A stretch of DNA of 64,000 bases from positions 1 through 64,000 of IMG/VR virus record IMGVR_UViG_3300009506_000016; one strand, written 5' to 3'. The position numbers were made by a program, and so were the translations under genes. Origin of the DNA: a virus. Positions 1,351 through 55,434 of this stretch are shown in pieces (positions within the stretch are counted from its first letter, which is position 1; every line of letters starts with the position of its first letter). The notes below the pieces were generated by a model, which saw only the letters and a program-made list of their open reading frames with translations, was not told the origin of the DNA and did not search any database.

Positions 1351-1353
1351 AGC

Positions 1354-4925: not shown

Positions 4926-4930
4926 TAAAC

Positions 4931-15817: not shown

Positions 15818-16136
15818 ACGCATGTTCATGTTTCTAATCCTTAGTCTTGCAACGTGGCGGTTATCCAGCTTGTTCGCTCGTGAAAAAGGACCGTTCGATG
15901 TGTTCACCTGGATACGTAAGAAAATTTATACTAGAACGGTGTATAATTTAATGAGAGCGCTATTTATAACACTCAATGACGGTTTATCTTGTATGTGGTG
16001 TAACTCTGTCTGGTTTGGACTTTTACTAGCACCGATCATCTCGACAAACCCGCTAGAGTGGATCATCATGGGGTTAGCGCTCTCTACTGTTGCAATTATC
16101 GTGGAGGAAAAGTTAAATGGCAATCGCATCAATTAG
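15801..16136 (+). CDS. DUF1360-like membrane protein
   Basis: LATWRLSSL..E.GPF...LSCMWCNSVW plus hydrophobic helices. Confidence 0.75.
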   Translation: MPVTLERMFMFLILSLATWRLSSLFAREKGPFDVFTWIRKKIYTRTVYNLMRALFITLNDGLSCMWCNSVWFGLLLAPIISTNPLEWIIMGLALSTVAIIVEEKLNGNRIN

Positions 16137-34973: not shown

Positions 34974-35552
34974 TTACTGATCACCCACCTCTTTGTTATT
35001 ATCAAGAAAGCTCATCGTTTCTACGCTTTTTGCATAGTATACAGAACGAGATTCTGAAACGTCATAGCTTGTTGCGTTTTCAACCGAAACCCCAAGACTT
35101 GTTGACAGCGACTTGGTTGTAAAATCGTCAAGGTTAGCCCCAAGAAATATTACTTTTCCGCCCTTATTCTCAAACGTTCTCACAAGATCAAGCAATTGTT
35201 TTGTGGTGTATCTAAATGATGCGTTCTCAAGTCCATCGGTCATAAGAACAACAACTTTCTTTATATCTTTGTGCATTCCGTTCATAAGAACAAGTTCTTC
35301 GCCGAATACATCCAGCAGTGGTGTCATTCCATTGCAGATATATTTATCTCTAGTAATAACTGGCGCATCTATAGCCTCTCCGAGATAGATGATATCGCGC
35401 CGAGCATCGTCCCAAACAACAATTTTAATGATTGTTTCTTTCAATGCTCTAACTGTATTCAAATACTCATTAATAGCATCAACGGTAACTGGTATGTTCG
35501 GAATCATCGATCCAGAACCATCCATAAGTAATGAAATTCTACTCTCTGTCAT
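34974..35552 (-). CDS. vWA domain protein
   Basis: MIDAS DGSGSM, GMTPLLD, MTDGLENAS. Confidence 0.88.
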   Translation of the reverse strand: MTESRISLLMDGSGSMIPNIPVTVDAINEYLNTVRALKETIIKIVVWDDARRDIIYLGEAIDAPVITRDKYICNGMTPLLDVFGEELVLMNGMHKDIKKVVVLMTDGLENASFRYTTKQLLDLVRTFENKGGKVIFLGANLDDFTTKSLSTSLGVSVENATSYDVSESRSVYYAKSVETMSFLDNNKEVGDQ

Positions 35553-35884: not shown

Positions 35885-36231
35885 ATTCCCCATTTCCCTT
35901 TCCGGTATATCAACCAGATAATACAATAAACCGCGAGATCCGTAATAGTATCCTCAATGGATTCGTTTTTTGGATCAAGCGGTTCTTCGAATTCAGATGA
36001 TTTTATCTCAATTCGGAATCCCATCAAATTCATAAGCCTTGCCATTTTATCCCACGTTCGGGTTGCGAGTCCAATCTCTCCTGTTCCAAGTATATTAGCA
36101 GGACTGTAATCCGCGTTTTTATCGAGATGTACTTCATACATGTGTTCGATAATATCTCGGAAAGCCTCGGTCTGTTCTGGACGCAGATCCTCGGTAATAT
36201 GAGTTGGCCTATCAAGATTTATATATCCCAT
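35881..36231 (-). CDS. DUF1599 / nucleotide-modification-associated domain 1 (Nmad1)-like protein
   Basis: KNADY, DKMARL, ESIEDT..DLAVY. Confidence 0.75.
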   Translation of the reverse strand: MGYINLDRPTHITEDLRPEQTEAFRDIIEHMYEVHLDKNADYSPANILGTGEIGLATRTWDKMARLMNLMGFRIEIKSSEFEEPLDPKNESIEDTITDLAVYCIIWLIYRKGKWGI

Positions 36232-36800
36232 TTTGTCCTTCCGTTGTTCATGTTTATAGCACCAAGTTTCAATACATCCTGAATGCTATCAACTCTCGGG
36301 GCCCAAAAGTCATTAGCATTATGGGGCTGATTGTATAATATCTTGTATCCCGAGTATGCGCGTATGTTATGTATTCCGTCATCGAGTAGCGTTCCATAAC
36401 TTCCGTTTAGTAAAGACTTATCACCAACCTCAATATAGTCCTTCTGGAAACGCTTTGATTCGAGAAATCCATAGTCGTACAACCATTGTAATTTTCTACC
36501 CTGATTCTTATAAACCGGGGTAGTGGCGAATACAACTCTGTATCCAAGCTGTTTCAATGCAGAGATGGTTCGCTTTACTACATATTCGGGTTCGAGTAAA
36601 AACACTTCATCATACAACGTTGGATCATCAAGATATTCATAGATAATTTCACCGCATTCTGGTTTTACGAATTTCCTCATATCCCATTCGGTGATATCTT
36701 TCTTTTGAAGATGGTCGTTGTAGTCTTTATTGTATCTACGCAACCATGCGGATAGAAGATCAGCGATAGTATCATCAATATCAATATAAAATGTTTTCAT
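36219..36800 (-). CDS. 5'(3')-deoxyribonucleotidase (HAD, NT5C-like)
   Basis: YIDIDDTIAD, K..WL, LLDD..HN, YNQPHN. Confidence 0.85.
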   Translation of the reverse strand: MKTFYIDIDDTIADLLSAWLRRYNKDYNDHLQKKDITEWDMRKFVKPECGEIIYEYLDDPTLYDEVFLLEPEYVVKRTISALKQLGYRVVFATTPVYKNQGRKLQWLYDYGFLESKRFQKDYIEVGDKSLLNGSYGTLLDDGIHNIRAYSGYKILYNQPHNANDFWAPRVDSIQDVLKLGAINMNNGRTKWDI

Positions 36801-36898
36801 AATAGACCTCAATTGCGCATCTCCGATTTGAACGGAGAATATGGCCTTTATTTTGATACCAATGCGCAAACTAATTATACATGATTATGTATAACTTT

Positions 36899-37972: not shown

Positions 37973-39592
37973 TTATTTGTATCCGATGAACTCGTTGATC
38001 AGTTGCGGTACGTTTCCATCAAACCCGGCCACGTCCAGAGCAAGCGGATCAGAAGTGTCACCAATCGTATACCCGGTGGGTGTCATTGACATGGTAACCA
38101 GATTGACATCATGTCTTACATGAGATCGATACTGGTTTAGAGCAACAAACGGATGAACCCAACCTGCCCAAGTTTCACTGTCTGTGATGCAAACAAATGC
38201 GTCAAAGTCACGGCCTTGTCTCTTTGCCCAAGAAAAAGCGAGTGATGCGTCTGTTCCACCAAATGACATGTGGCTCGTTATCGCCATAGCCTGATCAAGT
38301 TTCATTCCGGCGCTGATCCCGAGCGGCCTGATATTATCAGCGAAGCCGATAATCTCGTAGTTTGGCTCGGAGTTAGCAAGAACAAGTGCCATAGCCGCCG
38401 CTCCAAGGTTTGGAGTAAAACCAGCAATGCCATTGATCGATCCGTAGGTCATTGAGCCACTCACATCAAGCGCATAGCAGATATTCTTGTGTGTGGCCGG
38501 TGCGTTTTTGAATGCAGAGTAGAAAGTGTTCTCACATGCGTAAGAGATATCACGATCAACATTCCACCGATTTTGACCACGCGTATCTACGCCAGCGTTA
38601 TATTGCAATGATGCAATCAAAGCCTTGATAGGATGCAAGCGGTTTTTGTGCAACCACTCAACATCGTTGAGGCGGCTGATGATCAGATTCTTGGAATCGC
38701 GGTCTTTCAGAACACCATAACGAGTCATATTTGCGAGATTGCGGACCATTGCCTCAGCACCCATTTGGGGTAGTAGAGCGATCCACACGTCACGATCAGT
38801 CAGATATTCGGTTGGTACAATCTCTCTCGGTGCATTCGCTGTGCGAATCACATCGATGATACCTTCCTTATTGCCCCTGGCCGCATAATCTTTCATCACT
38901 TCTGCGGCTGTAATGATATCTGGCACAAGAAAAGTATTGTATTCCTTTCCCAATGACCACAACATTGCCGCTTGGTGCGCCGGTGATGCAAAGCTAAAAT
39001 CAACATGCGCAAGACGAATGACATCCTTCTGCGACCATCCCTCACGTTGTTGATATTTAGCCAACTGGTAAGCCAGCGAGTTAGGGCTACGATCAAGATA
39101 CCATTTGGAAACGGCCCGGCGCACAGCCCTTCCCCATCCGCGTTTTGCGTGCAAGAAACTTGCAAACGTGAACAGGTGAGTACCAGTACGAACAACCTTC
39201 GGCAACGCATTTAGAGCTAGCTTACGTGCGTATGCCATTCCGTTTGTGTAAGACGCGGCAACTGCAAGAGCAAAAATAGCAGGATCGTTACTTGCGGCGC
39301 GTCCATTGTCGCTCACATCAACAATCATATCAATGGTGCGCGTTGGATCTTCATTAAGACATCGAAGAATGTTGGTGTAATTCTCGAACGTCCGCTTTTT
39401 CTCGTTGGCGTAGTAGGTTGGTCCTTCTGTACCAAGGATCAAAAACCGTTCAAGTTGAGTAAACATGCCAGCATCAAACACATATCCGCCAGCGTTATTC
39501 ATAACTTGCTTTTTGCCAGGAACAGGCCGAGATTGAGGAATATTACCAACCTTGTTGCTTGTTCCAGCATTGATATAGGTTTTTCGTGCCAT
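37973..39592 (-). CDS. rsr: Ro60 / TROVE-domain RNA-binding protein (Rsr) with C-terminal vWA domain
   Basis: Start MARKTY after GGAGG. NNAGGYVF, LERFLILGTEG.TYY, VRTGTHLF.F, RGWGRAVRRAV..WY, KYQQREGWSQKD..RL.H, RNL..MT, LHP, DVSGSM, GGTDASL, TDSETW and GFD are hallmark Ro60 motifs. Confidence 0.96.
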   Translation of the reverse strand: MARKTYINAGTSNKVGNIPQSRPVPGKKQVMNNAGGYVFDAGMFTQLERFLILGTEGPTYYANEKKRTFENYTNILRCLNEDPTRTIDMIVDVSDNGRAASNDPAIFALAVAASYTNGMAYARKLALNALPKVVRTGTHLFTFASFLHAKRGWGRAVRRAVSKWYLDRSPNSLAYQLAKYQQREGWSQKDVIRLAHVDFSFASPAHQAAMLWSLGKEYNTFLVPDIITAAEVMKDYAARGNKEGIIDVIRTANAPREIVPTEYLTDRDVWIALLPQMGAEAMVRNLANMTRYGVLKDRDSKNLIISRLNDVEWLHKNRLHPIKALIASLQYNAGVDTRGQNRWNVDRDISYACENTFYSAFKNAPATHKNICYALDVSGSMTYGSINGIAGFTPNLGAAAMALVLANSEPNYEIIGFADNIRPLGISAGMKLDQAMAITSHMSFGGTDASLAFSWAKRQGRDFDAFVCITDSETWAGWVHPFVALNQYRSHVRHDVNLVTMSMTPTGYTIGDTSDPLALDVAGFDGNVPQLINEFIGYK

Positions 39593-39604
39593 TTCGTACC
39601 TCCA

Positions 39605-39743
39605 ACAGAAAGTATAGTCGTGCAAAACGGTTGGCGGGATTCGAACCCGCCTTTTGCCATTAACCGTTATGGAGCGGCTGGTTGCTCAACCGGTACAACC
39701 TGTTCTTCTCCATTCGATGTAATAACCGACAAACAATCGTATA
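39605..39743 (-). ncRNA. structured rsr leader / Y-like RNA with a tRNA T-arm
   Basis: GGCGGG-UUCGAAU-CCCGCC stacked on an AACGGUU/AACCGUU helix; 5' end UACGA...GUCGGUUAU matches the Y-like elements. Confidence 0.65.
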
Positions 39744-39746
39744 ATA

Positions 39747-39775
39747 ATTATACCATATATTCGATCATATTGCAA
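39747..39775 (-). promoter_or_regulatory. sigma70-type promoter for the rsr leader and gene
   Basis: TTGCAA-17-TATAAT with extended TGn. Confidence 0.8.
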
Positions 39776-39786
39776 AACGAGTTTTC

Positions 39787-40017
39787 TCATCGAGAGATAA
39801 GAAAAACAATATAAGCAATAAAAGCAATGTTGATAATTGTTAATAATGCAACGCCCATTTTTTCTGTATCATCAAGACAATATACAGAGTTATGCTCAAT
39901 TCTCACAGCAATGAAAATGGGCCAAACAAATATAAGCATTATTGTAATAACAACATAAACGGCAAGACTTGAAATCATCTTAATAGGATATCCAATAATG
40001 AAAAACACCTTTCTCAT
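39787..40017 (-). CDS. small membrane protein
   Basis: Two hydrophobic helices. Confidence 0.6.
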   Translation of the reverse strand: MRKVFFIIGYPIKMISSLAVYVVITIMLIFVWPIFIAVRIEHNSVYCLDDTEKMGVALLTIINIAFIAYIVFLISR

Positions 40018-40325
40018 TTGCTTATCCCTTCTGAAAGAAATAACAATCCATGTTCTTCAAGTGGTTCTATTTGCATTTCGTCAACAAGTTTCTTGATTGC
40101 AATAGGAACGCCTTTTATCTCAAGTTTTCCGCCATATAGAGGAATGTAGATAATATCGCTACGCCATATAATCTCATCACTCTCATTTCTTGCACAAACT
40201 GTAATCTCAACCTGATCGTACAATACACGGCCAACAATGATCGTAAGCTGAATTGTTGGCTCATCTTTCATACCACTTCTTATGTAATCATTGACTAATT
40301 TTCCGAATGTCAGCTTGTTTCCCAT
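40014..40325 (-). CDS. hypothetical protein
   Basis: 103 aa, AAGGA SD. Confidence 0.65.
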   Translation of the reverse strand: MGNKLTFGKLVNDYIRSGMKDEPTIQLTIIVGRVLYDQVEITVCARNESDEIIWRSDIIYIPLYGGKLEIKGVPIAIKKLVDEMQIEPLEEHGLLFLSEGISK

Positions 40326-40365
40326 GTCTTAATCATTCCTTAATATAAGTTTAATAAAAACTGAC

Positions 40366-40413
40366 TTGACTTGCGTATAGCAAAAATGGTACAATAGAGG
40401 GTGGGAGGGAGGG
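40366..40413 (+). promoter_or_regulatory. antisense-oriented sigma70-like promoter followed by a G-quadruplex motif
   Basis: TTGACT-18-(TGG)TACAAT, then GGGTGGGAGGGAGGG at 40399-40413. Confidence 0.5.
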
Positions 40414-40418
40414 AATAG

Positions 40419-40643
40419 TTAAAATAGCATGTTGTCACCAAAATCTCGCCATTCCTTAAGCTCTTCCCTAATTCTCTCAGAATCAATAGCGAGTTCTTTC
40501 GACTCATCAGCATATCCCTTCATGATGCTATCGGGGATAGGATGATAATTCGCAATCATAACTATGATCTTAATAATAATGGTTAATAATCGAGTCATGA
40601 ATGCAAACATCTCAATAATCATTCTCTTATCATTTTTGTCCAT
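40419..40643 (-). CDS. small protein with a hydrophobic helix
   Basis: AGGAG SD; 74 aa. Confidence 0.65.
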   Translation of the reverse strand: MDKNDKRMIIEMFAFMTRLLTIIIKIIVMIANYHPIPDSIMKGYADESKELAIDSERIREELKEWRDFGDNMLF

Positions 40644-40661
40644 TGTTGTATTTCTCCTATT

Positions 40662-40693
40662 AAAAATGCCCGTAGATGCGTTCTACGGGCATT
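40662..40693 (-). terminator. intrinsic terminator
   Basis: Minus strand: ATGCCCGTAGA...TCTACGGGCAT followed by a T-tract. Confidence 0.7.
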
Positions 40694-40735
40694 CTAAGCC
40701 ATTTTTAGGCCATATACGTTATTTGATAACGGATA

Positions 40736-41167
40736 TCAAAGGTAGTGGGTGTATTCCCGTTCTGTGTGTTCCAGGCGGTATAAAACGTCCTCAAGCATAG
40801 TATGAAGGACCGCCATTTGGCGATTGTACTCTCCATGACCTTTAACACGTTCAAGATCGGCGAATGACATGAGTGATTCGACAAGCGTGATTGCTATGTC
40901 AATTGACTCTATATTAAGAGCCTGGCCGGTTGAGATATTGGCACGATTGTTCATACCAAGGATTTTTACGATATCGTTTTCTCCAAGGGTTGTCAATCCA
41001 CGAGTCACAAACCCAAGACCCTGATAGCGTTCTTTTGCCGATCTATCTTTTTTGATATCAACACCGAGATCAGCACAAAACGTTTCAAGAGATGAACGAT
41101 AGTAATATTCACCAAGCTCTTTTATGAGTAGATTGATAAACTCTTTCCTTGTCATTGTGGTTGGCAT
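40736..41167 (-). CDS. hypothetical protein
   Basis: 143 aa, AGGAG SD. Confidence 0.7.
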   Translation of the reverse strand: MPTTMTRKEFINLLIKELGEYYYRSSLETFCADLGVDIKKDRSAKERYQGLGFVTRGLTTLGENDIVKILGMNNRANISTGQALNIESIDIAITLVESLMSFADLERVKGHGEYNRQMAVLHTMLEDVLYRLEHTEREYTHYL

Positions 41168-41175
41168 CGTGACTC

Positions 41176-43353
41176 CTAATAATCAACTTTCACATCACGA
41201 ATTGCGAACGTGAAGTGTTTGTCATCAAGATCAACCTCAGCGCCATCACGGGTGTCAAGATCGGGGAACCATTGTTTGCACAGCAAGACAGCAAACCGTG
41301 TTCTCTGGATCTTATCACGCACATTTCTCAAATCATTCTTCACGCGATTGAGACTCGCCTTTGCATATTCCAGGGTCGATAGCGGATCTTTTGAGTTAGG
41401 CATATTGTTCTCAAATGATTTTATGACATCGGACATAAGTTGATTGGATGGTGTGAGTTTCTTTCCGTCAGCCATTTTTGACAACACGTCATCAATCTTT
41501 GGAGCGCTGGAATATCCCTTGATCTTTACCTCAAATTCCTTGGCGAAGTAGTGATCGATGCTTTCTTCCTTGTCTACCGGTGGTGAATATAAGCGATCAT
41601 GCTTAATCCCGTAGGTTTCAAGGAATTCGATCTGCTCGTTCGTGAATTCGCTCGTGACTTTTTCCATGATCCCGGTTGGATCTAATTCCTTGATCTTGTT
41701 GTTCAGGAATTTTTGCATGAACGTAAGCTCAAGCTCGTGATCCAGCCACCCACAATATTCGGTAGATGTTGGCGCAGTGGCAATCTTCTTGTTCACCAGA
41801 GGAACAGCACCTAAGTCAACAAGATAGATTGTATCTTCATCGTGTTCATCATAGTAGTTATCTGGTAGCATACCAGCATCGACTAACCGATGAAACGTGT
41901 CATAACTCATTGACACTGGAAGGGTGGGCGTGTTCAAGATGCTATCTTTGACCAGGGTGTAGTTGCGATATTGATGACACTGGAAATACTCTCTGAGGCC
42001 AACATGCACAGCATCAGGAAGATTAACATGTCCAGGAATTTTTGCAAGGATGGAAAGATTCAGGCGTTTTTGATTCCATGTCAGATGATTGAATGGACAG
42101 GCCGTAGTAGAGTCTGCAAAGAATTTTGGATATCCATCGCGTGTCTTTGTGGGTACGCCGGTGCGCTTGTAGTTGAACAACTCGTGGCGTGGATAGAAGT
42201 ATGCTTTGCTATCTGCCATAAGCAAGTCAATAGCATCAAGCAAGCAAAACGCATCATCGGCTGGAACAAAATCGGTATCTTGTCCCTCAATGAACCTGAA
42301 CGCCTCAGAATCAAGTGATAGCAACATGCTGTTTTGCGCATTGCCATATTCCTCATTTGTGAATGCGTTGTTCACTTCTTTGATCAATGCAACTTCGCCG
42401 ATAGATCCAAGCATCTCAATAGCAATGTCTGACTTTGCGGAAGAAACAAATGCGTATGCCAGGGCCACAGGAGCAACGTATGATTGCTCATACGTCATTG
42501 ACGAAACCGTATCATAATGAGTCAGATCGTGCATGTGATTGATATCAGCAAGGACATAGATGGTGTTAGCGTTCTCTGGAACGTATGTTACAGCATCCAT
42601 AGTGTTGAGTATCTCAACAGGATACTGCTGGACGTTGAAGCCATCGTATCCAACTACCATCAGAGGTTGCATAACTGGAAGTGGTACTGAAACGCGCAAC
42701 GCCTTCTCAGATCCAACAAATTGCTCCATGCTCGAATCAAACTCGGTAAGGTGGCTGGAATGGATAAGAGTCCCGCCGATATTCGCTGTCATCTGAGCCA
42801 TAAGCTCTTTATTATAGTAGTCACCATAACCAACCAGCATCACAGACGAAACTTTGTCGTTCAGCGCACGCATGGTATTGAGAATTTTTTGTACTTCCTG
42901 TTTGTAGTTACTTACAACCGGATATCCGTCCGTCATAAACATGAGCGATACGGTTCCAGGAAGTGCGGAAAGATTACCGATGATGTTATCATAGGTATCT
43001 GCCAGGATCTCAGAAAAGCATGTGAGGCCTACAACGCTTTTGTATTTCTGTAATGCACTTTTTACAGTATTTTGGAATGACGAATTAACGGAAAGGCCGA
43101 TAAAGATCCAGCCAAACTTCCCGTTTTCAGTTGAAAACCAACCGATTGATAAGGTATCTCCATCGCGGAGTTGCTTGGAACGCTCAACCATATCATCAAC
43201 CAATTGAGGCAATGTATAATACATTGATCCAGAACGGTCAAAGATCCAAACGTGATTTGTAGGATCAGGAACAGAAGCCTTTTCCTCAGAGCGATCCAAT
43301 TCGATAGCGAACAAGTTGTACTTATTCTTTACAGGGGCTACAGATACTTTCAT
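41176..43353 (-). CDS. large vWA-domain protein (725 aa)
   Basis: N-terminal MIDAS DRSGSM, GLT, MTDGY; C-terminal half unassigned. Confidence 0.8.
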   Translation of the reverse strand: MKVSVAPVKNKYNLFAIELDRSEEKASVPDPTNHVWIFDRSGSMYYTLPQLVDDMVERSKQLRDGDTLSIGWFSTENGKFGWIFIGLSVNSSFQNTVKSALQKYKSVVGLTCFSEILADTYDNIIGNLSALPGTVSLMFMTDGYPVVSNYKQEVQKILNTMRALNDKVSSVMLVGYGDYYNKELMAQMTANIGGTLIHSSHLTEFDSSMEQFVGSEKALRVSVPLPVMQPLMVVGYDGFNVQQYPVEILNTMDAVTYVPENANTIYVLADINHMHDLTHYDTVSSMTYEQSYVAPVALAYAFVSSAKSDIAIEMLGSIGEVALIKEVNNAFTNEEYGNAQNSMLLSLDSEAFRFIEGQDTDFVPADDAFCLLDAIDLLMADSKAYFYPRHELFNYKRTGVPTKTRDGYPKFFADSTTACPFNHLTWNQKRLNLSILAKIPGHVNLPDAVHVGLREYFQCHQYRNYTLVKDSILNTPTLPVSMSYDTFHRLVDAGMLPDNYYDEHDEDTIYLVDLGAVPLVNKKIATAPTSTEYCGWLDHELELTFMQKFLNNKIKELDPTGIMEKVTSEFTNEQIEFLETYGIKHDRLYSPPVDKEESIDHYFAKEFEVKIKGYSSAPKIDDVLSKMADGKKLTPSNQLMSDVIKSFENNMPNSKDPLSTLEYAKASLNRVKNDLRNVRDKIQRTRFAVLLCKQWFPDLDTRDGAEVDLDDKHFTFAIRDVKVDY

Positions 43354-43394
43354 TGTGTGTCCTTTCGAATCGAATACGAATTAGACTTACAACA

Positions 43395-43465
43395 TGGACC
43401 GTAAGAGATTCGAACTCTATCTTCTCGTTGCAACGGAGATGATCTGCCATTTGATCTAACGGCCC
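43395..43465 (-). tRNA. tRNA-Ala(UGC), atypical anticodon and T stems, no encoded CCA
   Basis: GGGCCGU/ACGGUCC acceptor stem with G3:U70 and A73, GAUC D-stem, UUCGAAU T-loop. Confidence 0.75.
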
Positions 43466-43474
43466 ATTTTATCT

Positions 43475-43828
43475 TTATGGAACAGGATAACTAACATCGG
43501 GAGCCGGGTACGGCTCTACAGGAGCGGGGTATCCGATATCTTGTGTTGGCCGAACAATTCTTCGTAGGAATAAAGGAATAGTAGCTTGAAGGTCTTCTTC
43601 GTGTTCTCCGCTTTCGTTTTCGTCATCTGTTGAGTTATCGGTTGTGTTAATAGCATTCATTTCAATGTTCTTTGGAACACGAGTTGGAGTCGAAAAAGAT
43701 ACTACGGCAGGATCATTGTTATCGATCATATAAGCCTTAGCTCTGTTTTTCATTATACCAAACATGATAAAAGCGAGAATGAATGATACAAATAGAATAA
43801 TTATCGTTTTTTGTTTTAGTGAGGTCAT
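43475..43828 (-). CDS. membrane-anchored Pro/Thr-rich protein with YPAP repeats
   Basis: Start MTSLKQK; transmembrane helix; C-terminal GYPAPVEPYPAPDVSYPVP. Confidence 0.7.
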   Translation of the reverse strand: MTSLKQKTIIILFVSFILAFIMFGIMKNRAKAYMIDNNDPAVVSFSTPTRVPKNIEMNAINTTDNSTDDENESGEHEEDLQATIPLFLRRIVRPTQDIGYPAPVEPYPAPDVSYPVP

Positions 43829-43850
43829 TGTTGCCAACCTTAAATAAGTG

Positions 43851-43887
43851 GCCCGGTGGGTAAGGAGGTGAAAAAAACCCACCGGGC
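43851..43887 (-). ncRNA. hairpin displaying the 16S anti-SD sequence UCACCUCCUUA
   Basis: Perfect 10-bp stem GCCCGGUGGG/CCCACCGGGC; loop UUUUUUUCACCUCCUUA. Confidence 0.55.
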
Positions 43888-43900
43888 GCTCAATATTGAA

Positions 43901-44038
43901 CACGGTAATGTGGTGAGAAACCGGTTTAGCTCTGGCCGGGATTCGAACCCTAGAGCGAACAAGTATTACTCGTCCAGCAACCACGCCACTAGCCATCATA
44001 GTCTGGTAGATAGATAACAGTCTCTCTTTCGTACCGCG
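43901..44038 (-). ncRNA. Y-RNA-like element Y6 (138 nt; T-loop, cloverleaf-like interior)
   Basis: CGCGGUA-C-G...UUACCGUG lower stem; GAGAGACUG/CGGUUUCUC upper stem; UUAUCU; GGG-UUCGAAU-CCC. Confidence 0.75.
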
Positions 44039-44051
44039 AAAGTCTATTTTC

Positions 44052-44130
44052 ATTCGGTAATAAGTTGCGCTCGATAAAAAACTTCTGTACTGAAGTTTAC
44101 CGAAGGTAACCGAAGCGCGGCGTACCGAAT
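44052..44130 (-). ncRNA. Y-RNA-like element Y5 (79 nt, minimal)
   Basis: AUUCGGUA-C-G...UUACCGAAU; upper stem GCGCUUCG/CGAGCGC; GUUACCU. Confidence 0.75.
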
Positions 44131-44150
44131 CTTTATTAGGTTGTTAAAAC

Positions 44151-44226
44151 AAGGTAATAAATTAGCGCTCGATTTATTAGTTTCGTTTCATATACAAAGT
44201 TTGGTTATCGAACACAAGCGTACCTT
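44151..44226 (-). ncRNA. Y-RNA-like element Y4 (76 nt, minimal)
   Basis: AAGGUA-C-G...UUACCUU; upper stem GUGUUCGAU/AUCGAGCGC. Confidence 0.72.
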
Positions 44227-44238
44227 ATTATCTGTCTC

Positions 44239-44335
44239 GTGGGTGATGCGCCTATCACCCACTTATTCCATTCCGCACCGCAACCAACTTGAAGGAGCTT
44301 GACCAAGGAGATCCCGGCGGCGCTCACCGGTGAGC
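44239..44335 (-). ncRNA. structured element with two CUCCUU-displaying loops plus flanking hairpins
   Basis: GCGCCGC/GCGGUGC encloses GAUC-UCCUU-GGUC and AGC-UCCUUCAA-GUU; GUGGGUGAU/AUCACCCAC hairpin at 44239-44262. Confidence 0.5.
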
Positions 44336-44350
44336 CTTGCTAAGTAATAA

Positions 44351-44481
44351 TCTGGTAATGTATTTGATCACCATGTTTAGCGTCTTAACCACTTAGACCA
44401 CACGGAGCCTCGGCTCACAGGTTGGGATTCGAACCCAAATATCTCTGCCCAAGTCAGATAACAGTGATCTTCCGTACCAGA
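44351..44481 (-). ncRNA. YrlA-like Y RNA Y3 (131 nt; permuted tRNA mimic)
   Basis: UCUGGUA-C-G...UUACCAGA; UUAUCU; T-arm UUGGG-UUCGAAU-CCCAA, then a closed acceptor-like hairpin GAGCC/GGCUC, then D-arm GUCU-AAGUGGUUA-AGAC. Confidence 0.85.
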
Positions 44482-44495
44482 AAGATTCAATAATA

Positions 44496-44639
44496 AAGTG
44501 GTAATAAAAGTAGGCTGGACATTATTTTTCCTCTGCCATTGAGCTACACACGGATCTTCTTTTTCCGCATGACGGGATTCGAACCCGCAACCTATTGTTG
44601 TTTATACAATTGAGATAACCCAACCAATCCGTACCACTT
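44496..44639 (-). ncRNA. YrlA-like Y RNA Y2 (144 nt; permuted tRNA mimic)
   Basis: AAGUGGUA-C-G...UUACCACUU; GUUAUCUCAAUUG; T-arm GCGGG-UUCGAAU-CCCGU, acceptor CAUGCGGA/UCCGUGUG closed by a loop, UA, D-arm GCUC-AAUGGCA-GAG. Confidence 0.85.
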
Positions 44640-44656
44640 AAGTTTTCAATGTTCTG

Positions 44657-44724
44657 GCGGTATTAAGATTGCAGTCGATTTAAGAGTCTGTATACTTGTA
44701 GATAACCGACTTGCTTCGTACCGC
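44657..44724 (-). ncRNA. Y-RNA-like element Y1 (68 nt, minimal)
   Basis: GCGGUA-C-GAA...AUACCGC; upper stem GCA.GUCGG/UCGACUGC; UUAUCU. Confidence 0.75.
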
Positions 44725-44734
44725 ATCATCATAG

Positions 44735-44798
44735 TCGCTTGTGCCGTTGGGTTTGACTTAAGGAGGTCCATAGAGTAGCTAGAACTCGGGACAAGCGA
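44735..44798 (-). ncRNA. structured element with an anti-SD loop (GAC-CUCCUUAA-GUC)
   Basis: UCGCUUGU/ACAAGCGA closing stem; first element after the promoter. Confidence 0.55.
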
Positions 44799-44833
44799 TG
44801 AACCGTTATTTGTTTTTGTTCTAGCATGTATAT

Positions 44834-44862
44834 ATTATACGACTATTCAGAATTATTGTCAA
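44834..44862 (-). promoter_or_regulatory. perfect consensus sigma70 promoter driving the ncRNA array
   Basis: TTGACA-17-TATAAT; predicted TSS near 44827. Confidence 0.88.
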
Positions 44863-45328
44863 TAGGCAATTTTTCTTGGTCGTTATCTTTCTGAGTAACT
44901 GACTTCATTGCTTTCTCATAACGATCTTTTGAGATAAATACAAGCTCGTTCTCAAAAAGAACAGCGAATTGAGGTCGATAGCCAGTTTTATCGTGATGCC
45001 AACGAGCAGACGAATGAATAAAACTGTCATCATCACTCCAATATTTATTAACAAAGCGATCATTGATATCATCGCCAGCAATATTGACATAATCTTTATT
45101 ACTAGCCGCGTAGTAAAGAAAGATATCATCAATCTTTGACGGAAGATCAAATTCATCATCCATATTCACGTCAAGAGCTTTGCATAGGCCAGATAATTGT
45201 AACTGATACCAGTAAGGAATATATGGATCACGGCGATGCTTGTAGAGCGCCCGGATCAACAACTCCACTTCCTTTGACGACACTTTCTTTTCGCGTAAAA
45301 GCTGAATGGTTGCTCGATACTTTGACAT
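44843..45328 (-). CDS. hypothetical protein
   Basis: Start MSKYRA with AAGGA SD. Confidence 0.65.
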   Translation of the reverse strand: MSKYRATIQLLREKKVSSKEVELLIRALYKHRRDPYIPYWYQLQLSGLCKALDVNMDDEFDLPSKIDDIFLYYAASNKDYVNIAGDDINDRFVNKYWSDDDSFIHSSARWHHDKTGYRPQFAVLFENELVFISKDRYEKAMKSVTQKDNDQEKLPIDNNSE

Positions 45329-45330
45329 AG

Positions 45331-45780
45331 CTATTTCCTTGTGAAGAATAGTTTTGAAAACCAAGAAAGATGAGTGCGTTTCTCATAACATTGTTTGCAT
45401 ACAAAGCGTCCATAGCTGTAATCAAAATCATTTAAAAGGTTTTCAAGCTGTTGTGGGCTATCAATGCTAACGCTATCAATATGACCGCAAGAACATGGGT
45501 AACTAATAATGATTCCTTGTTTTTCATTCCAACCATGATATGTGAAATAATAATGATACATTCCACCATCATTCTCAATAGAATTAACAGTATGCACAAA
45601 CTGTATAGGATCAGAACCCTTAGTAACACGAATAACATCTGCTAAAGAGCAATCAAGAAAGTAGGCCAGATGCTTAAGTCGCTCAACGTATCGATAATCG
45701 TTTGACTTCTTTTGGTCGTAAACTGATTTATTCCACCATTTCTCAATACTTTGTTTGATTAATTCACTCATATCTGGCAT
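45331..45780 (-). CDS. hypothetical Zn-binding protein
   Basis: CSCGH...CKQC. Confidence 0.65.
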   Translation of the reverse strand: MPDMSELIKQSIEKWWNKSVYDQKKSNDYRYVERLKHLAYFLDCSLADVIRVTKGSDPIQFVHTVNSIENDGGMYHYYFTYHGWNEKQGIIISYPCSCGHIDSVSIDSPQQLENLLNDFDYSYGRFVCKQCYEKRTHLSWFSKLFFTRK

Positions 45781-46607
45781 TACGGTATCTCCCTAACTCT
45801 GTAGTGTTCAGGCCATTCTTCCGGGTCTGATCCGCTTGTTGATTTATATCCAAGTTTCTTAGCCAATGCACTACCGGATTGTTTCATATAGAATGGAATC
45901 CCGTATATTGAGCATTGTAGCCAAGCGTACTTGGCCCATCCCCAATTCATTTCTCGTGCCTGTGGTCCGCTTTCGCCACCAACAATCACCCAATCTAACT
46001 TTGTGATCCAATCTTTGAAATTTATATAGGAAAGTAATGGCTCGGCGCTGATAAAGTTCTTTCCAGGCCACATTTCCAATAATATAGGTATACGTGCATC
46101 GGCGGTGTCTTGGTTTTCTGTAGTGATCCCGAGCCTTATGTGTAAGTTTCCATCAGGATCTTTGATCCATCTTTCAGGAAACATGCGCTGTGCATTCTCG
46201 ATTCGTTTCGTAAGAATCAGAAATTCAATGTATCCACCGGCTATTTCTCCGGCACGATCAAGAGCATTCCACAAATCATTGCGCCACTCATCAGGAACTT
46301 CATCATCAAACACATCACTGAGTGATGAAACAAATACTCGGTGAAACTGCTTATGATCAAATGCGCATTTGGCCCATGTGAACACGCTATTATGCGTTCT
46401 CTCACTTGTTAATTTACGTGGTGCGCCCTTCCCCCAAGAGCCTTTATCTGTCCATTTGTAGTAAGTGTTTTGCCTTTCGGCGTAACAAAACTTACATCCG
46501 GGACTGATCTTTGTGCATCCAATCCACCAATTAAGTGTTGAACCGGGATGCCAAGATCCATCTTGCCGCTTTGTAGCGGTCCATCCTATCTTGGTTTCTT
46601 TTCCCAT
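45780..46607 (-). CDS. phage Gp37/Gp68 family (DUF5131) protein
   Basis: TKIGWT, GCTKISPGCKFCYAE, VFVSSLSDVF, LTKR, SAEPLL, WVIVGGESG. Confidence 0.9.
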   Translation of the reverse strand: MGKETKIGWTATKRQDGSWHPGSTLNWWIGCTKISPGCKFCYAERQNTYYKWTDKGSWGKGAPRKLTSERTHNSVFTWAKCAFDHKQFHRVFVSSLSDVFDDEVPDEWRNDLWNALDRAGEIAGGYIEFLILTKRIENAQRMFPERWIKDPDGNLHIRLGITTENQDTADARIPILLEMWPGKNFISAEPLLSYINFKDWITKLDWVIVGGESGPQAREMNWGWAKYAWLQCSIYGIPFYMKQSGSALAKKLGYKSTSGSDPEEWPEHYRVREIP

Positions 46608-46656
46608 GCGCCACCTATATTTTATTAGAAACTTCCCTATATAATATTATAACCTA

Positions 46657-46727
46657 AAGGATCAGATCGAGTCGAACGATCATTGACGGCTTCAAAGGCC
46701 GGTGTCCTACCATTAGACGATGATCCT
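46657..46727 (-). tRNA. tRNA-Gln(UUG), no encoded CCA
   Basis: AGGAUCA/UGAUCCU acceptor stem; CGGC-CUUUGAA-GCCG anticodon arm; GAUCG-UUCGACU-CGAUC T-arm. Confidence 0.88.
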
Positions 46728-46733
46728 TAAATT

Positions 46734-47033
46734 CTAGTATTCGCTTGGTAGCAAAATACAGGTTGAGCTTCTATCTGCCTCGGTAATAATCCATATCTTT
46801 GTATTATCATTGAGCAGATAGGCGGAAAGAATACGTGTTCCGCCGTTGATGGATTTGTTGTTTTCCTGCTTGTCAAAGGTTGACACAACTCCCCAATCAC
46901 CAAGGGCATGTTTCATGAGGAATTCTTGTGGGCGCTGTTTTGCCTCATCAAGTGCATATTGAGCGCCTGTGGTAATCACTATTTGCCCAAGCGCGAACAA
47001 CGGTTTTCTGGTATTAGGTATCTTTGGTAGCAC
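46734..47033 (-). CDS. conserved mobile-element protein (LGQIV.T.GA / GDWG / IWIITEADRS.T.ILLPSEY family)
   Basis: Recognisable motif series of a common plasmid/phage family of unknown function. Confidence 0.75.
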   Translation of the reverse strand: MLPKIPNTRKPLFALGQIVITTGAQYALDEAKQRPQEFLMKHALGDWGVVSTFDKQENNKSINGGTRILSAYLLNDNTKIWIITEADRSSTCILLPSEY

Positions 47034-47616
47034 AGTCGCTTACTCCATTATGGTCAGGGTCGCAGAGCATATTTTCAATGCCATTGACTCCATAAGGATC
47101 AGCCATATTGACAGGAACAATGAAGAATGTATCCAGCCGGGTTGCTTGAGCAAGCGCTTTTGTGATCCCGGCCTTTACAGCGGTATTAATCGCCGCCGCG
47201 TCAACAATGGCCCATCCTTTGTTTTGTAAAAATGACACAAGATTGCTTACATCTTCGATGTCACCAAGCTGGCCGCGATTGAAACCGGCCATTGCTTTCA
47301 ATTCCTCTATAGAAGTTATGGTTGTGAGTTTAGCGGAGTCCCAAGCATAGAACGCAACCCCTCTTTCTCCAATAGGCCACACAATCAAAAACTTCGTGCT
47401 TGATGGATCTACAATAATTGTGGACCACCATGCACCGCCCAAAGCACTCCGAACAAGGGCCATAGTCTGAAACTTTCCAATCTGGATCAATTCACCAGGA
47501 GATACAGCGTACTCAAGACCTGGAGCTTGCATTGCCGCAGAGCAACCGTATGATAAAATGACGGATAGCAACAGAGCAACACGAAACACATGTGACATTA
47601 CTTTATTCAATTTCAT
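47014..47616 (-). CDS. putative lipoprotein
   Basis: Signal peptide ending LSYGC (lipobox-like). Confidence 0.6.
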   Translation of the reverse strand: MKLNKVMSHVFRVALLLSVILSYGCSAAMQAPGLEYAVSPGELIQIGKFQTMALVRSALGGAWWSTIIVDPSSTKFLIVWPIGERGVAFYAWDSAKLTTITSIEELKAMAGFNRGQLGDIEDVSNLVSFLQNKGWAIVDAAAINTAVKAGITKALAQATRLDTFFIVPVNMADPYGVNGIENMLCDPDHNGVSDCATKDT

Positions 47617-47706
47617 TTCTCTATCCTTTCGTATCATGGTTTTGCTCTGCCCGGATTGCTCCGGGCAGTTGCATTAGAAGAAAGCGCAATATGATTAAGC
47701 TGAATT

Positions 47707-48243
47707 TTAGATCAGGCCAACCAGTTGCGTAAGGCTCGGCTTGACGACTGAGGAAAACGGCGATCCCTCAACACCATTTGACTTTGCGGCGTTTTCAGCA
47801 GGTCCAGAAACAAGATTACTAATCTTGTCATCCATGAATTTGTGGTATGGATCAGTGTCTTGACCTGACAACATGAAGATGAACGAGAACCTGTAATCAT
47901 GGTATACCTGTTTTGGCACAAGACCTTTATTGGCCGGATGCGCACAATAGGCCATAATAGCTCGCTTGAGGGCCACCACTCTGCCAGTATAATCATCTTT
48001 TTCTTTCAATTCTCCTGGATGAAGAATGGCAATTCCAGTAAACGGAACACCGGTGTAAGCATTGCGAACAACGCATAACACAGCACGCCGAGTACCAACT
48101 ACACGCTTCACGTTATGAATGCTTCTGAGATATTCGGGCAAAAAGTCGCCCAAATAATCAAACTTGATCTCAGTGAACGTCACAGCGATATGGCGCTTTA
48201 GATGACCCTCTCCGGTACGGAAAGTAACCACGTCACCAAACAT
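47707..48243 (-). CDS. hypothetical protein
   Basis: Start MFGDVV with AAGGA SD; own promoter. Confidence 0.65.
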   Translation of the reverse strand: MFGDVVTFRTGEGHLKRHIAVTFTEIKFDYLGDFLPEYLRSIHNVKRVVGTRRAVLCVVRNAYTGVPFTGIAILHPGELKEKDDYTGRVVALKRAIMAYCAHPANKGLVPKQVYHDYRFSFIFMLSGQDTDPYHKFMDDKISNLVSGPAENAAKSNGVEGSPFSSVVKPSLTQLVGLI

Positions 48244-48292
48244 AAGATTATCCTTTCGTCTAATATGAATAGAATTGTAACACGTACATATT

Positions 48293-48321
48293 ATTTTATA
48301 TGAATAACATGCGCGTGTCAA
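48293..48321 (-). promoter_or_regulatory. sigma70 promoter
   Basis: TTGACA-17-TAAAAT. Confidence 0.7.
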
Positions 48322-48334
48322 TACCTAAGTTTTC

Positions 48335-49705
48335 TCAGGATGCTTCTTCAACGTCAACTGCGTTTGGATCTTCCTTGACAATACCCTCAAGAACCTGGAA
48401 CGCATAGTTCTTCGCTTTGTAAGCACGAATTCCACTCGTGTTTTCTACGCGAATCACCACACCTTCCATCAAGTGACGTTTATCAAGAGTTGAACATCTA
48501 TTGTCCAGAAACTTTTCGAGAATAACATTCAGAACACTGCTAACGTATGATTGTTCTTCATTTACATGAATATAAATCATTCTTAGAACAGGAACATGTT
48601 TCAGAAATAGCTCAGAGCATCGTTTCATAGTTTGCAACCACGATAACTCTGTCTCAATTCCATCCTCGTTTTGCACAGTGATGCGATACACGTAAAAGTC
48701 AAATGCTGGATTCATGCCACCATTATCATTCACGGTATTGCATCCGTATGAGTAAACCATTGGCCTACTGCCAATAACATCAAAAGGAAACTTAACAAAC
48801 TTGTCACGTATTTCCTTTTGTAAATCTTTATCCTTGATTTTATCAATAGATTGAGAATTCATAATCGGAGATCCGAACGTATCGAACCCGACTATCTCGT
48901 AGTATATGGTTTCCCCTTTGCGAAGTCTCCCGATCATTGACTTGTGAATTTGCCAGCGATAATGTTCCCTTCCAAGTCCAGTGATATCTTCACGGTTGTT
49001 GCATATCGTGTTTCGAGTACCGGTCACATATTCATACTTTTCTGTGACCACCGGTGCAATAACCTCACGCTTCAATACACGGTTTACCAAACTCGCAATC
49101 ATTCCAAAGCGTTCATGCTGTGCTTTGACGAATCCTGTTCGTCCGCTTGTTCCATGAAGTTTCTCTGTAATGATGAAGAAAGATCCTGGTGGGATCGTGT
49201 CCATATAATACCGGATCTGCTCGGTATCGTAGTGCTTGTTGAGCATGTAATGATCCCTAACCTTTACGGGTTTGTCGGATCTCGATTGGGCTTTGCGGGT
49301 GGCCTCTGTCACATATTTTGTACATATTGGATTTCCGTTTAGCTCGTTGAACGTAAGTCCTTGTACAAGTTCTTTTGTACTACCGGTCCATTCGAACGCT
49401 GATATCTTAACGGCAAACCCTTCTGACTTCACGCCCCTGAACGGCTGGACCCTAACTCTCCTGGTATCCTCAAAGAAACCAGTAACGGTTGTGTCTGCAT
49501 TCTTGGTAGCATCCCTATAAAGATTGTTGTAGTGGCAAAACTCATGGGATAGCTGACCATCAGGCGGAAAGATAACAACAAGATCTCCGATATGGTAATC
49601 CTTACTAACAATGAAGTTTGCACCGTTGTATGGCAGAATCATAAGTCGATCAGCATTTGGGTGATCGAGCAATTGATGAACGGATATGACGTGTGCGTTA
49701 TACAT
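48335..49705 (-). CDS. ATP-dependent RNA ligase (Rnl2-like / DRB0094 family) with N-terminal OB-like domain
   Basis: HPNADRL, R.V....FRGVKSEG; nucleotidyltransferase motifs TEKLHGTS (I), YYEIVG (III), FYVYRI (IIIa), EGVVIR (IV), KAKN (V). Confidence 0.88.
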   Translation of the reverse strand: MYNAHVISVHQLLDHPNADRLMILPYNGANFIVSKDYHIGDLVVIFPPDGQLSHEFCHYNNLYRDATKNADTTVTGFFEDTRRVRVQPFRGVKSEGFAVKISAFEWTGSTKELVQGLTFNELNGNPICTKYVTEATRKAQSRSDKPVKVRDHYMLNKHYDTEQIRYYMDTIPPGSFFIITEKLHGTSGRTGFVKAQHERFGMIASLVNRVLKREVIAPVVTEKYEYVTGTRNTICNNREDITGLGREHYRWQIHKSMIGRLRKGETIYYEIVGFDTFGSPIMNSQSIDKIKDKDLQKEIRDKFVKFPFDVIGSRPMVYSYGCNTVNDNGGMNPAFDFYVYRITVQNEDGIETELSWLQTMKRCSELFLKHVPVLRMIYIHVNEEQSYVSSVLNVILEKFLDNRCSTLDKRHLMEGVVIRVENTSGIRAYKAKNYAFQVLEGIVKEDPNAVDVEEAS

Positions 49706-54439: not shown

Positions 54440-55378
54440 TTATTCAGATTGTAGCTCTAGTTTGTTCACAAACTCTTTTGCCAGTTTGCGCACTTTTAAA
54501 AAGTCGCGTGACCTACGCCATTCATAAGCAAGATCATCGCAACCAACACACGAGTCGCTTTTAGATCTTACATTGAAGAAAAACCACTTGTTAAGCAGTA
54601 ATAATACAAGTGGATTATCGTTGATAGATCCAAACGGAAGATTGCTTCCAAAACAACATCCATCCGATGACTTTCCATTTGGAAGAATTGAAATAGTGTT
54701 CCGATAATAGCAAGCATTTCGAAGTCCAGCATCTCTAACACCGATTCCGTTCTTAAAAGCGCGGCCAACGTTATTTGTTCCTCTATCTTCCCAACTTTTC
54801 TCTACATAAAAACGATTTTCTTTCACAGCATCTCTAAGGTTGTATGGTTCCTCATCATACTCGCTGTATATTCCTGCATCGTAGAGGCCAAATCCTTCTT
54901 CTCCGAAGTAATCATCAAACATAAATTCAACTTTGTTCTTTCTGAATTCAGAATGATAATTATCGTTTGATACTCTTATTGACAAAGCCTCATCACCAAA
55001 GTGGTAGCCAATAATGTCAAGAAACTTTCGCAACGCTTTGGGTTTTTCAAGCCACCATCCATTTGTTGTCATCTCTATTTTATATTCATCAGAGTATCCC
55101 ATTATAAAATCAAATGCACGCTCAAATTTATACAATGGCAATGTTGGCTCGCCGCCAATCAGGTTTATTTCCGGCCTGAGATTATATAATTCAAGTATCC
55201 TACACCATCCAATCACCTTTCGCATGATCTCCATGCTCATATACTTACCGGATTTGTGCGGACCACAAAAATACATACAGTGATCACACTGGAAATTACA
55301 TTTTTCTGTAAGTAACAGAGATAAAGTAACTTCATTATCTATAGCTTCTTCGTAAATAGCACTAAATGTTGTACTCAT
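54440..55378 (-). CDS. radical SAM protein with SPASM/twitch-like C-terminal cysteines
   Basis: CNFQCDHC, GGEP, MTTNG, C....I.PNG....CC, C..C. Confidence 0.88.
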   Translation of the reverse strand: MSTTFSAIYEEAIDNEVTLSLLLTEKCNFQCDHCMYFCGPHKSGKYMSMEIMRKVIGWCRILELYNLRPEINLIGGEPTLPLYKFERAFDFIMGYSDEYKIEMTTNGWWLEKPKALRKFLDIIGYHFGDEALSIRVSNDNYHSEFRKNKVEFMFDDYFGEEGFGLYDAGIYSEYDEEPYNLRDAVKENRFYVEKSWEDRGTNNVGRAFKNGIGVRDAGLRNACYYRNTISILPNGKSSDGCCFGSNLPFGSINDNPLVLLLLNKWFFFNVRSKSDSCVGCDDLAYEWRRSRDFLKVRKLAKEFVNKLELQSE

Positions 55379-55396
55379 GATATGCCTCCTTATTAA

Positions 55397-55434
55397 AATG
55401 AAAAACGGCACATGAAAGTGTGCCGTTTTTCATT
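55397..55434. terminator. terminator-like hairpin
   Basis: AATGAAAAACGGCACAT-GAAA-GTGTGCCGTTTTTCATT. Confidence 0.7.

Follow-up and report, generated by a model that had tools for sequence, protein, structure and literature searches.

A phage Ro60 gene with an array of Y-like RNA units and a nearby Rnl5-type RNA ligase as a variant of a known RNA-maintenance neighbourhood

Phage Ro60 genes have been reported to be adjoined by Y RNAs (PMC4201824), and the Ro60 protein of Thermus phage phiLo, the subject of the sole biochemical study of a phage Ro60, binds two Y-like RNAs (Yrl1 and Yrl2) and captures the host PNPase in vitro, the activity of the latter going down by about 70-76% (PMC12135203). 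In Salmonella, the rsr-yrlBA-rtcBA operon is regulated by RtcR and is reported to respond to damaged tRNA (PMC7790460). A survey of jumbo phages named tRNAs, ATP-dependent ligases and TROVE proteins as RNA-repair equipment and proposed a counter-defence rationale for them (Iyer et al. 2021, PMC7824862). Here we describe a Ro60 locus located at positions 37973-49705 of the IMG/VR virus record IMGVR_UViG_3300009506_000016, a 77,565-bp sequence assembled from a marine-sediment metagenome with a completeness of 68% according to CheckV; the first 64,000 nucleotides (64 kb) of the record, analysed as a whole, are hereafter called the window. The sequence-only reading of this region listed a Ro60 gene, a 725-aa vWA protein, two tRNAs, an array of Y-like and anti-Shine-Dalgarno-like (anti-SD-like) elements and an RNA ligase with an OB domain, all on the minus strand, and each of these was found again with Pfam, Rfam, ARAGORN and fold comparisons.

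Phage Ro60 with Y-like RNAs (Chen et al. 2014; phiLo 2025) and the combination of tRNAs, ligase and TROVE in jumbo phages (PMC7824862) are already known. In a comparison with some 200 related phage loci, the ligase proved to be no reliable companion of Ro60, and the locus is accordingly one version of an RNA-maintenance neighbourhood already known from phages; that it is a new machine is not demonstrated. What is new here is the size and diversity of the RNA array, the anti-SD-like hairpins, the presence of an Rnl5 ligase without end-healing partners and the conserved small vWA neighbour. With middling confidence we read the region as a loose RNA-centred accessory neighbourhood consisting of a Ro60/Y-RNA module, to which the small vWA protein probably belongs, plus a ligase acting independently. 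The module contains the following protein-coding and leader features:

37973..39625, minus strand: Ro60 (Rsr) orthologue, TROVE ring and C-terminal vWA domain with the MIDAS (metal-ion-dependent adhesion site) motif DVSGSM
39590..39775, minus strand: Ro60 leader carrying a promoter-like TTGCAA-17-TATAAT and, at 39647, an orphan T-arm motif
34974..35552, minus strand: 192-aa stand-alone vWA/MIDAS protein (phrog_7371), 2.4 kb from Ro60 and outside the 37973-49705 region

The Ro60 gene, which probably starts at the ATG 11 codons inside its open reading frame (ORF), codes for a protein matching Pfam TROVE PF05731 (2e-34, residues 42-211 plus a second stretch), PF25045 vWA_Ro60 in its C-terminal part (1.9e-45, residues 382-547) and phrog_850 (1.3e-66). 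Its identity to 16 viral Ro60 genes and to 361 from GenBank phages amounts to 35-41%. Four sets of loci were used for comparison, namely 16 viral Ro60 loci (35-41% identity), 80 viral ligase loci, 80 metagenome ligase loci and 21 viral loci of the 725-aa protein. In 11 of the 16 related Ro60 loci, orphan T-arms (those outside tRNA calls) lie on the strand of Ro60 at a distance of about 1 kb or less, with about 0.01 per locus expected by chance. As in these relatives, the leader element right upstream of Ro60 in the window is a probable Y-like or tRNA-like RNA. The RNA part of the locus comprises:

43394..43466, minus strand: tRNA-Ala(UGC), ARAGORN, Rfam tRNA 42.4 bits
43851..43887, minus strand: perfect 11-bp hairpin at the array end (inverted repeat I6), the loop displaying CACCUCCUUA, which resembles the 16S 3' end
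43901..44724, minus strand: array of six Y-like RNA units, from a pattern scan, folds and T-arm repeats
44657-44724, minus strand: Y-like unit 1
44496-44639, minus strand: Y-like unit 2, with a tRNA-like T-arm module
44351-44481, minus strand: Y-like unit 3, with a tRNA-like T-arm module
44151-44226, minus strand: Y-like unit 4
44052-44130, minus strand: Y-like unit 5
43901-44038, minus strand: Y-like unit 6, with a tRNA-like T-arm module
44834..44862, minus strand: consensus sigma-70-type promoter TTGACA-17-TATAAT (12/12) ahead of the array
46656..46728, minus strand: tRNA-Gln(UUG), ARAGORN, Rfam tRNA 58.7 bits

Both tRNAs are canonical, and the array is located between them. A GGTAC...TACC closing stem with paired flanks occurs six times within 43902-44724, a stretch of about 830 nt, whereas the remaining 63 kb of the window contain it a single time. 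In all six units the flanks surrounding the common closing-stem sequence co-vary, and the 5' and 3' ends of all six folded units are paired as a closed terminal stem; for five of them the folding z-scores range from -1.7 to -2.9. Unit 2, which folds with an 8-bp closing stem, gives the best match to the Rfam YrlA model (RF02553; 44528-44594, 21.9 bits, E 0.11, model positions 25-83) and has a YrlA-like layout, as it aligns to the T-arm, the acceptor-like stem and the D-arm, with the T-arm preceding the D-arm. A GGUUAUC motif followed by the T-arm is present in units 1, 2, 3 and 6 and also in the Y-like RNAs of the related locus L176.

The anti-SD-like hexamer CTCCTT is found four times in the 990-nt array (43851-44798, minus strand) against 0.22 expected (Poisson p about 9e-5), and this enrichment is real; one of the four sites belongs to the hairpin 43851..43887. 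Both sites of ACCTCCTT on the minus strand of the window are in the array as well, one of them in the loop of the same perfect 11-bp hairpin. An ORF at 43475-44053 overlaps Y-like unit 6; the genuine part of it probably begins with the ATG at 43816.

The locus shares the TROVE ring with a vWA/MIDAS domain, as well as nearby small RNAs with paired 5' and 3' ends and tRNA-like modules, with the known Ro60-Y RNA systems of bacteria and phages (Deinococcus Yrn1, Salmonella and Mycobacterium YrlA/YrlB, mycobacteriophage YrlA and phiLo). It differs from them in the grouping of its six units into a single promoter-driven array, at a distance of 4.3 kb from the Ro60 gene, instead of one or two adjacent RNAs, in the units lying below the YrlA threshold, in the interleaved anti-SD-like hairpins and in the small vWA protein as a conserved neighbour. 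In L176 (4600-5400, plus strand), the tRNA-like/Y-like element beside Ro60 is seemingly split by a 224-aa reverse-strand ORF (4658-5332) with TTCGATCCCTGGCTTCCTGACCT repeated on both of its sides, which looks like a homing-endonuclease or intron-type insertion.

The 192-aa protein matches phrog_7371 (4.8e-24) and, weakly, Pfam VWA PF00092 and carries the motif DGSGSM. In related phages no other protein accompanies Ro60 as consistently as this family, whose members are encoded within 3.6 kb of Ro60 in eight of 13 lineages (G002/3, G006, G007/8, G009, G010, G014, G042 and the window), and in Gordonia phage Mareelih it is represented by the first gene past the 30-tRNA array that follows Ro60. Among the Ro60-free records picked by the 725-aa protein, phrog_7371 was met once (G062), adjoining the gene for the 725-aa protein. 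The link is not universal, since Cluster C mycobacteriophage I3 has no phrog_7371 and Pseudomonas and Microbacterium phages possess it without Ro60. The phrog_7371 protein also adjoins the ligase in L042/L043 and L176/L063. No account of a vWA protein of about 200 aa as a Ro60 partner was found in a literature search that did not extend to the RNA-repair survey of Burroughs and Aravind (2016).

The core unit, the one that the evidence ties together, would include the Ro60 ring, the tRNA-like leader element, the separately transcribed array of six Y units and probably the 192-aa vWA protein. The common closing stem of the units would be expected from established Ro60 biology to bind the outer face of Ro60, with the variable payloads, that is, the tRNA-like elbows and the anti-SD-like loop hairpins, possibly tethering or sequestering host RNA-handling proteins. 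PNPase, a documented partner of bacterial Rsr from work on Deinococcus and Salmonella, is one candidate. The phage could in this way reprogramme host RNA decay and quality control in infection. The two phage tRNAs may supply or replace those of the host, and the ligase would most likely act alone, parallel to Ro60, sealing nicks left by metal-dependent nucleases or ends healed by the host. Parallel action of the Ro60 module and the ligase on RNA damage is plausible, and on present evidence the two share a theme and not a pathway. Two further genes of the region are:

48335..49705, minus strand: Rnl5-type (DraRnl/NgrRnl-like) ATP-dependent RNA ligase, motif I KLHGTS
41176..43353, minus strand: 725-aa vWA-headed protein (phrog_2426, 6.5e-132)

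The open frame of the ligase extends to 49813, position 49705 being its probable start. The protein matches Pfam RNA_ligase (3.4e-11) and phrog_968 (1e-54), the latter matching only D. radiodurans among 14 control genomes; a PDB sequence search gave zero matches. Its AlphaFold (AF2) model (predicted local distance difference test score, pLDDT, 89.9) has a full-length Foldseek match to NgrRnl (E 4e-14, template modelling score 0.68 by target) and is made up of an N-terminal OB domain and an adenylyltransferase domain, lacking a C-terminal domain of the Rnl1 or Rnl2 type; the PHA02142 OB-fold (PF21189) is present in homologues. Residues K182-x-H184-G185, E270, E414-G415, K430 and K432 are invariant across 32 homologues. 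The enzyme had been called Rnl2-type in the sequence-only reading, and this name had to be given up, as T4 Rnl2 and REL1 align to the catalytic domain only (E 5e-6 to 8e-7), far behind NgrRnl; the label DRB0094-type, used in the same reading, fits. We assign the ligase, by its modelled fold, to the Rnl5 (DraRnl/NgrRnl) type with the corresponding predicted activity. Like DraRnl (DRB0094) and NgrRnl, it has the OB and adenylyltransferase domains, the motif I lysine and no C-terminal domain; compared with NgrRnl it is about 100 residues longer, shares only 13-15% identity with it and is phage-borne.

Rnl5 ligases seal 3'-OH/5'-phosphate ends only, the 3'-OH strand being RNA, and both DraRnl and NgrRnl prefer duplex nicks over open anticodon loops. 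Breaks of the PrrC, colicin or MazF type leave 2',3'-cyclic phosphate and 5'-OH ends. The sequence-only reading saw no RtcB, RtcA or polynucleotide kinase in the window and suggested searching the rest of the genome for an end-healing enzyme; its negative observation was confirmed over the whole 77,565-bp record, and the wider search was equally empty, with RtcB (PF01139), RtcA (PF01137), AAA_33 kinase, Metallophos and 2H all absent from six-frame searches and ORF scans of this 68% complete sequence; no phosphatase, cyclase, RlaP or Thg1 was found in it either. As no end-healing gene is seen, cyclic-phosphate breaks would not be sealable by the ATP-dependent ligase alone, and repair of PrrC-, colicin- or MazF-type damage would require help from the host or from genes in that third of the genome which the record does not cover. 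The neighbourhood resembles the Salmonella rsr-yrlBA-rtcBA operon in that Ro60 and Y RNAs share surroundings with an RNA ligase and a damaged-tRNA theme, and differs from it in having no RtcB, RtcA or RtcR, an Rnl5 enzyme with the opposite end chemistry (3'-OH/5'-P) and no single operon.

A weak tblastn match to AAA_33 kinase at 29986-30120 was rejected, lying inside the Prim-Pol primase gene. Two ORFs between the ligase and tRNA-Gln, 47707-48321 and 47014-47637, were considered as hidden end-healing enzymes; neither is matched in Pfam, PHROG or the PDB, and their protein atlas matches are to uncharacterised phage clusters only. The latter ORF, on the minus strand, codes for a lipoprotein-like signal sequence (LSYGC) at the N-terminus, and its product is perhaps a protein of the membrane or of exclusion instead of an enzyme acting on RNA.

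The plus strand of the window carries genes coding for a tape-measure-like protein, glycosyltransferases and a lysozyme-family protein, and the block from about 29.8 to 59.2 kb has genes on the minus strand only. It encodes Prim-Pol, a methyltransferase, two helicases, MazG, an NT5C deoxynucleotidase, a Sak4-like AAA_24 ATPase and a radical-SAM protein, so the region from Ro60 to the ligase sits in a replication and nucleotide-metabolism module. Since the entire block is on the minus strand, the shared strand of the parts is uninformative. Several promoter-like sites were found in the region by a promoter scan, including the perfect TTGACA-17-TATAAT that precedes the array and, in front of Ro60, a site matching at 10/12, for which reason the region is probably not one operon.

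In the jumbo-phage RNA-repair islands (tRNAs, Rnl1/Rnl2/RtcB, PNK/HAD/2H, RlaP and occasional TROVE) and around T4 Rnl1/Pnkp, tRNAs and ATP-dependent ligases are likewise found, the islands sharing TROVE with the window too. The record described here, 77.5 kb long at 68% completeness, comes from a smaller genome, has two tRNAs and none of the kinase, phosphatase, 2H, RlaP or Thg1 genes, and its ligase is placed in a replication module.

The 725-aa protein has no Pfam match but carries a MIDAS-type motif, DRSGSM. Its AlphaFold model (pLDDT 86.8) matches 4fx5 in Foldseek (E 1e-10), with further matches to ITIH1, ArnB and the Sec23/24 trunk; about 390 N-terminal residues are covered, and for the 330 residues of the C-terminal part no fold match was recognised. 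Single-protein locus searches returned one locus only for this protein and zero for the ligase; the loci of both were therefore collected with alignment-based searches, and the closest homologues of both are 46-51% identical. In only one of the 21 loci of its family does the 725-aa protein adjoin Ro60 (L119, directly after a divergent TROVE protein). The phrog_2426 family and an Rnl5 ligase occur together in eight of 16 records, about 10-13 kb apart in several lineages (L103, L113, L116 and L120).

Only two relatives of this phage, L122 and L104, were found. L122, an 8-kb fragment showing the ligase backbone and stopping short of any Ro60 region, keeps the order o135 - o268 - o239 - AAA_24 (62% identical) - o145 - ligase - o204. 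L104, whose record (G064) is 80% complete and has neither Ro60 nor the ligase, keeps the order 725-aa protein, o101, helicase. Because this synteny is kept, the ligase and the 725-aa protein occupy conserved backbone positions of the replication module, and the 725-aa protein is a backbone gene of the phage group and not a Ro60-specific partner. In the window, the genes for Ro60, NT5C, MazG and the small vWA protein are located between those for the 725-aa protein and o101; in L104 all four are missing, and they look like an insertion on that account. The coordinates of the NT5C gene are:

36219-36869: NT5C-type HAD protein of the deoxynucleotidase family

By the sequence-only reading's own test its components should co-occur in related phages, and this expectation mostly failed. 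Within 10 kb of Ro60, no ligase, 725-aa protein or DUF5131 gene was found in any of the 16 Ro60 loci, and Ro60 is present within 10 kb of the ligase in five of 160 ligase loci (L032, L063, L097, L176 and L194). At the level of whole records, the ligase is present in four of 14 Ro60 records, none of which has RtcB, and TROVE in 5-6 of 47 ligase records. In the comparison set, made up of records for which the unrelated 725-aa protein was the criterion of choice, the ligase was found in eight of 16 and TROVE in three of 16; the co-presence of Ro60 and ligase is therefore no higher than the general richness of large environmental phages. Among GenBank isolates there are about 361 phage records with Ro60 and about 375 with the ligase, from largely different host groups, and mycobacteriophage I3 and Gordonia phage Mareelih have Ro60 and lack the ligase family. 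Ro60 travels with small RNAs and the small vWA protein, and not reliably with the ligase.

The ligase family itself has two separate genomic contexts, RNA repair and replication. In the 80 viral loci tRNA genes lie within 10 kb of the ligase in 35, with at least three tRNAs in 24, and in about 16-17 loci the ligase stands among primase, DnaB, SNF2 helicase and FEN. In the window it adjoins the Sak4-like ATPase and has tRNA-Gln 1.6 kb downstream.

Several observations weigh against a Ro60 module separate from the ligase or against the nature of its RNAs. When both genes are in one record, they are no more than 11 kb apart in five of 11 whole records: the distance is 8.7 kb in the window and 10.8, 9.5, 2.4 and 4.6 kb in other records, and two metagenome loci add distances of 2.2 and 1.5 kb. 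If placement were uniform, such closeness would have p of about 0.02-0.03, a lenient null because accessory genes cluster, and all the close cases lie in tRNA islands. L063 and L176 (68% identical in Ro60, 60% in vWA and 60% in the ligase) contain a compact cassette of Ro60, three tRNA-like RNAs, a small vWA protein, the ligase and two metallophosphoesterases, which hints at cooperation of Ro60 and ligase. The commonest neighbours of the ligase in the 80 viral loci are AAA_33 kinase (19), Metallophos (11), RlaP (8) and Thg1 (7), and the incompleteness of the record leaves room for missing partners. As for the RNAs, the YrlA gathering score of 69 bits is reached by none of the six Y-like units, and unit 3, with a z-score of -0.1, folds no better than shuffled sequence.

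The sequence-only reading took the region as an integrated counter-defence, in which Ro60-Y particles act as decoys for defence nucleases that cleave tRNA or rRNA, or pass broken RNA to the ligase; in such a system the tRNAs could be spares and the vWA proteins could have an adaptor role. Part of this stands: the families of the parts are linked to RNA surveillance and repair and recur in tRNA islands (L032, L063, L097, L194). Five independent arrangements (L032, L063/L176, L097, L194 and the window) place Ro60 at 1.5-10 kb from a ligase of this family, all in islands rich in tRNAs or Y RNAs; the L063/L176 cassette includes phosphoesterases, the small vWA protein adjoins both Ro60 and the ligase in several loci, and the jumbo-phage survey groups tRNAs, ATP-dependent ligases and TROVE as repair equipment (PMC7824862). 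The hand-off from Ro60-Y to the ligase is pure conjecture, however, and it is opposed by the empty 10-kb surroundings of the 16 Ro60 loci, by co-presence equal to the comparison set, by isolates I3 and Mareelih with Ro60 alone, by the separate promoter-like sites of the parts and by the enzymology, given that cyclic-phosphate breaks would not be healed by the phage genes seen in 77.5 kb and that Rnl5 enzymes are known to prefer duplex nicks to open anticodon loops. Integration of this kind is unlikely in our estimation.

A related and likewise doubtful proposal is that a Ro60 repair cassette exists, including Y-like tRNA mimics, a vWA protein of about 200 aa, an Rnl5 ligase and in some cases metallophosphoesterases, by which damaged tRNA or rRNA would be recognised and presented for healing and sealing. 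The window would then be a dispersed version using host end-healing, whose six Y payloads and anti-SD-like loops might target several host RNA-handling factors or ribosome-directed nucleases.

It may also be suggested that the ligase is a replication or recombination enzyme, sealing RNA 3'-OH nicks at RNA-DNA junctions together with the Sak4-like ATPase, helicases and Prim-Pol, and that its clustering with the RNA genes is coincidental. This agrees with the block o268 - o239 - AAA_24 - o145 - ligase shared by the window and L122, with the Prim-Pol, helicase, MazG and NT5C genes of the minus-strand block, with the replication-type surroundings in about 16-17 of 80 viral loci and with the lack of an RNA end-healing gene in the record. 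Nevertheless, RNA-repair types are the most frequent neighbour families of the ligase, tRNA genes are close to it in 35 of the 80 loci, and tRNA-Gln is near it in the window, so that a purely replicative role is rather improbable. That the Y-like units might be relics of tRNA genes, degenerate or processed, and structured spacers of a tRNA operon, and not Ro60 ligands, is very improbable: their low YrlA scores, the poor fold of unit 3 and the flanking tRNA genes would suit it, but the common closing stem with co-varying flanks and its concentration in about 830 nt, the orphan T-arm RNAs accompanying Ro60 in most related loci and the array's own consensus promoter speak against it.

Under the preferred reading of a Ro60/Y-RNA module next to an independent ligase, the locus combines a canonical Ro60 with candidate partner RNAs that are unusual in number and diversity, and the conserved small vWA protein is a likely candidate for an additional Ro60 partner. 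Membership of the Ro60 machine should not be taken for granted for the ligase nearby or for the 725-aa vWA protein.

The 11.8-kb region gave zero megablast matches to GenBank phages. The DNA sequencing runs with this phage are marine-sediment metagenomes of a single study, and there is no RNA run among those listed. One further gene of the region lies between the array and tRNA-Gln:

45780..46607, minus strand: DUF5131 (Gp37/Gp68-type) protein, Pfam DUF5131 1.7e-51

It codes for a protein with a CX5CX2C motif, and the family was not found near the Ro60 or ligase loci compared. The radical-SAM protein of the minus-strand block is encoded at 54440-55411 (minus strand), and no linkage of it to Ro60 or the ligase was seen.

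Several of the compared loci contain other RNA-related genes. L011, belonging to a 168-kb record, has a bacterial-type RNase P RNA (10407-10724, plus strand, Rfam 165.7 bits) inside a 22-tRNA array, with Ro60 and the small vWA gene a few kb away. In L032 a transfer-messenger RNA gene (8542-8890, plus strand, Rfam 71.7 bits) is located 1.1 kb upstream of the Rnl5 ligase and a Thg1-like tRNA 5'-end repair enzyme (11854-12837) is encoded just downstream of it, with Ro60 9.5 kb away. L063 possesses genes of NAD salvage and synthesis coding for NAPRTase, NAD synthase, an isochorismatase-type nicotinamidase and a cytidylyltransferase-like NMNAT (1310-4649, plus strand) directly upstream of its tRNA/Ro60/ligase island, as well as a peptide deformylase gene at 15511-16242.

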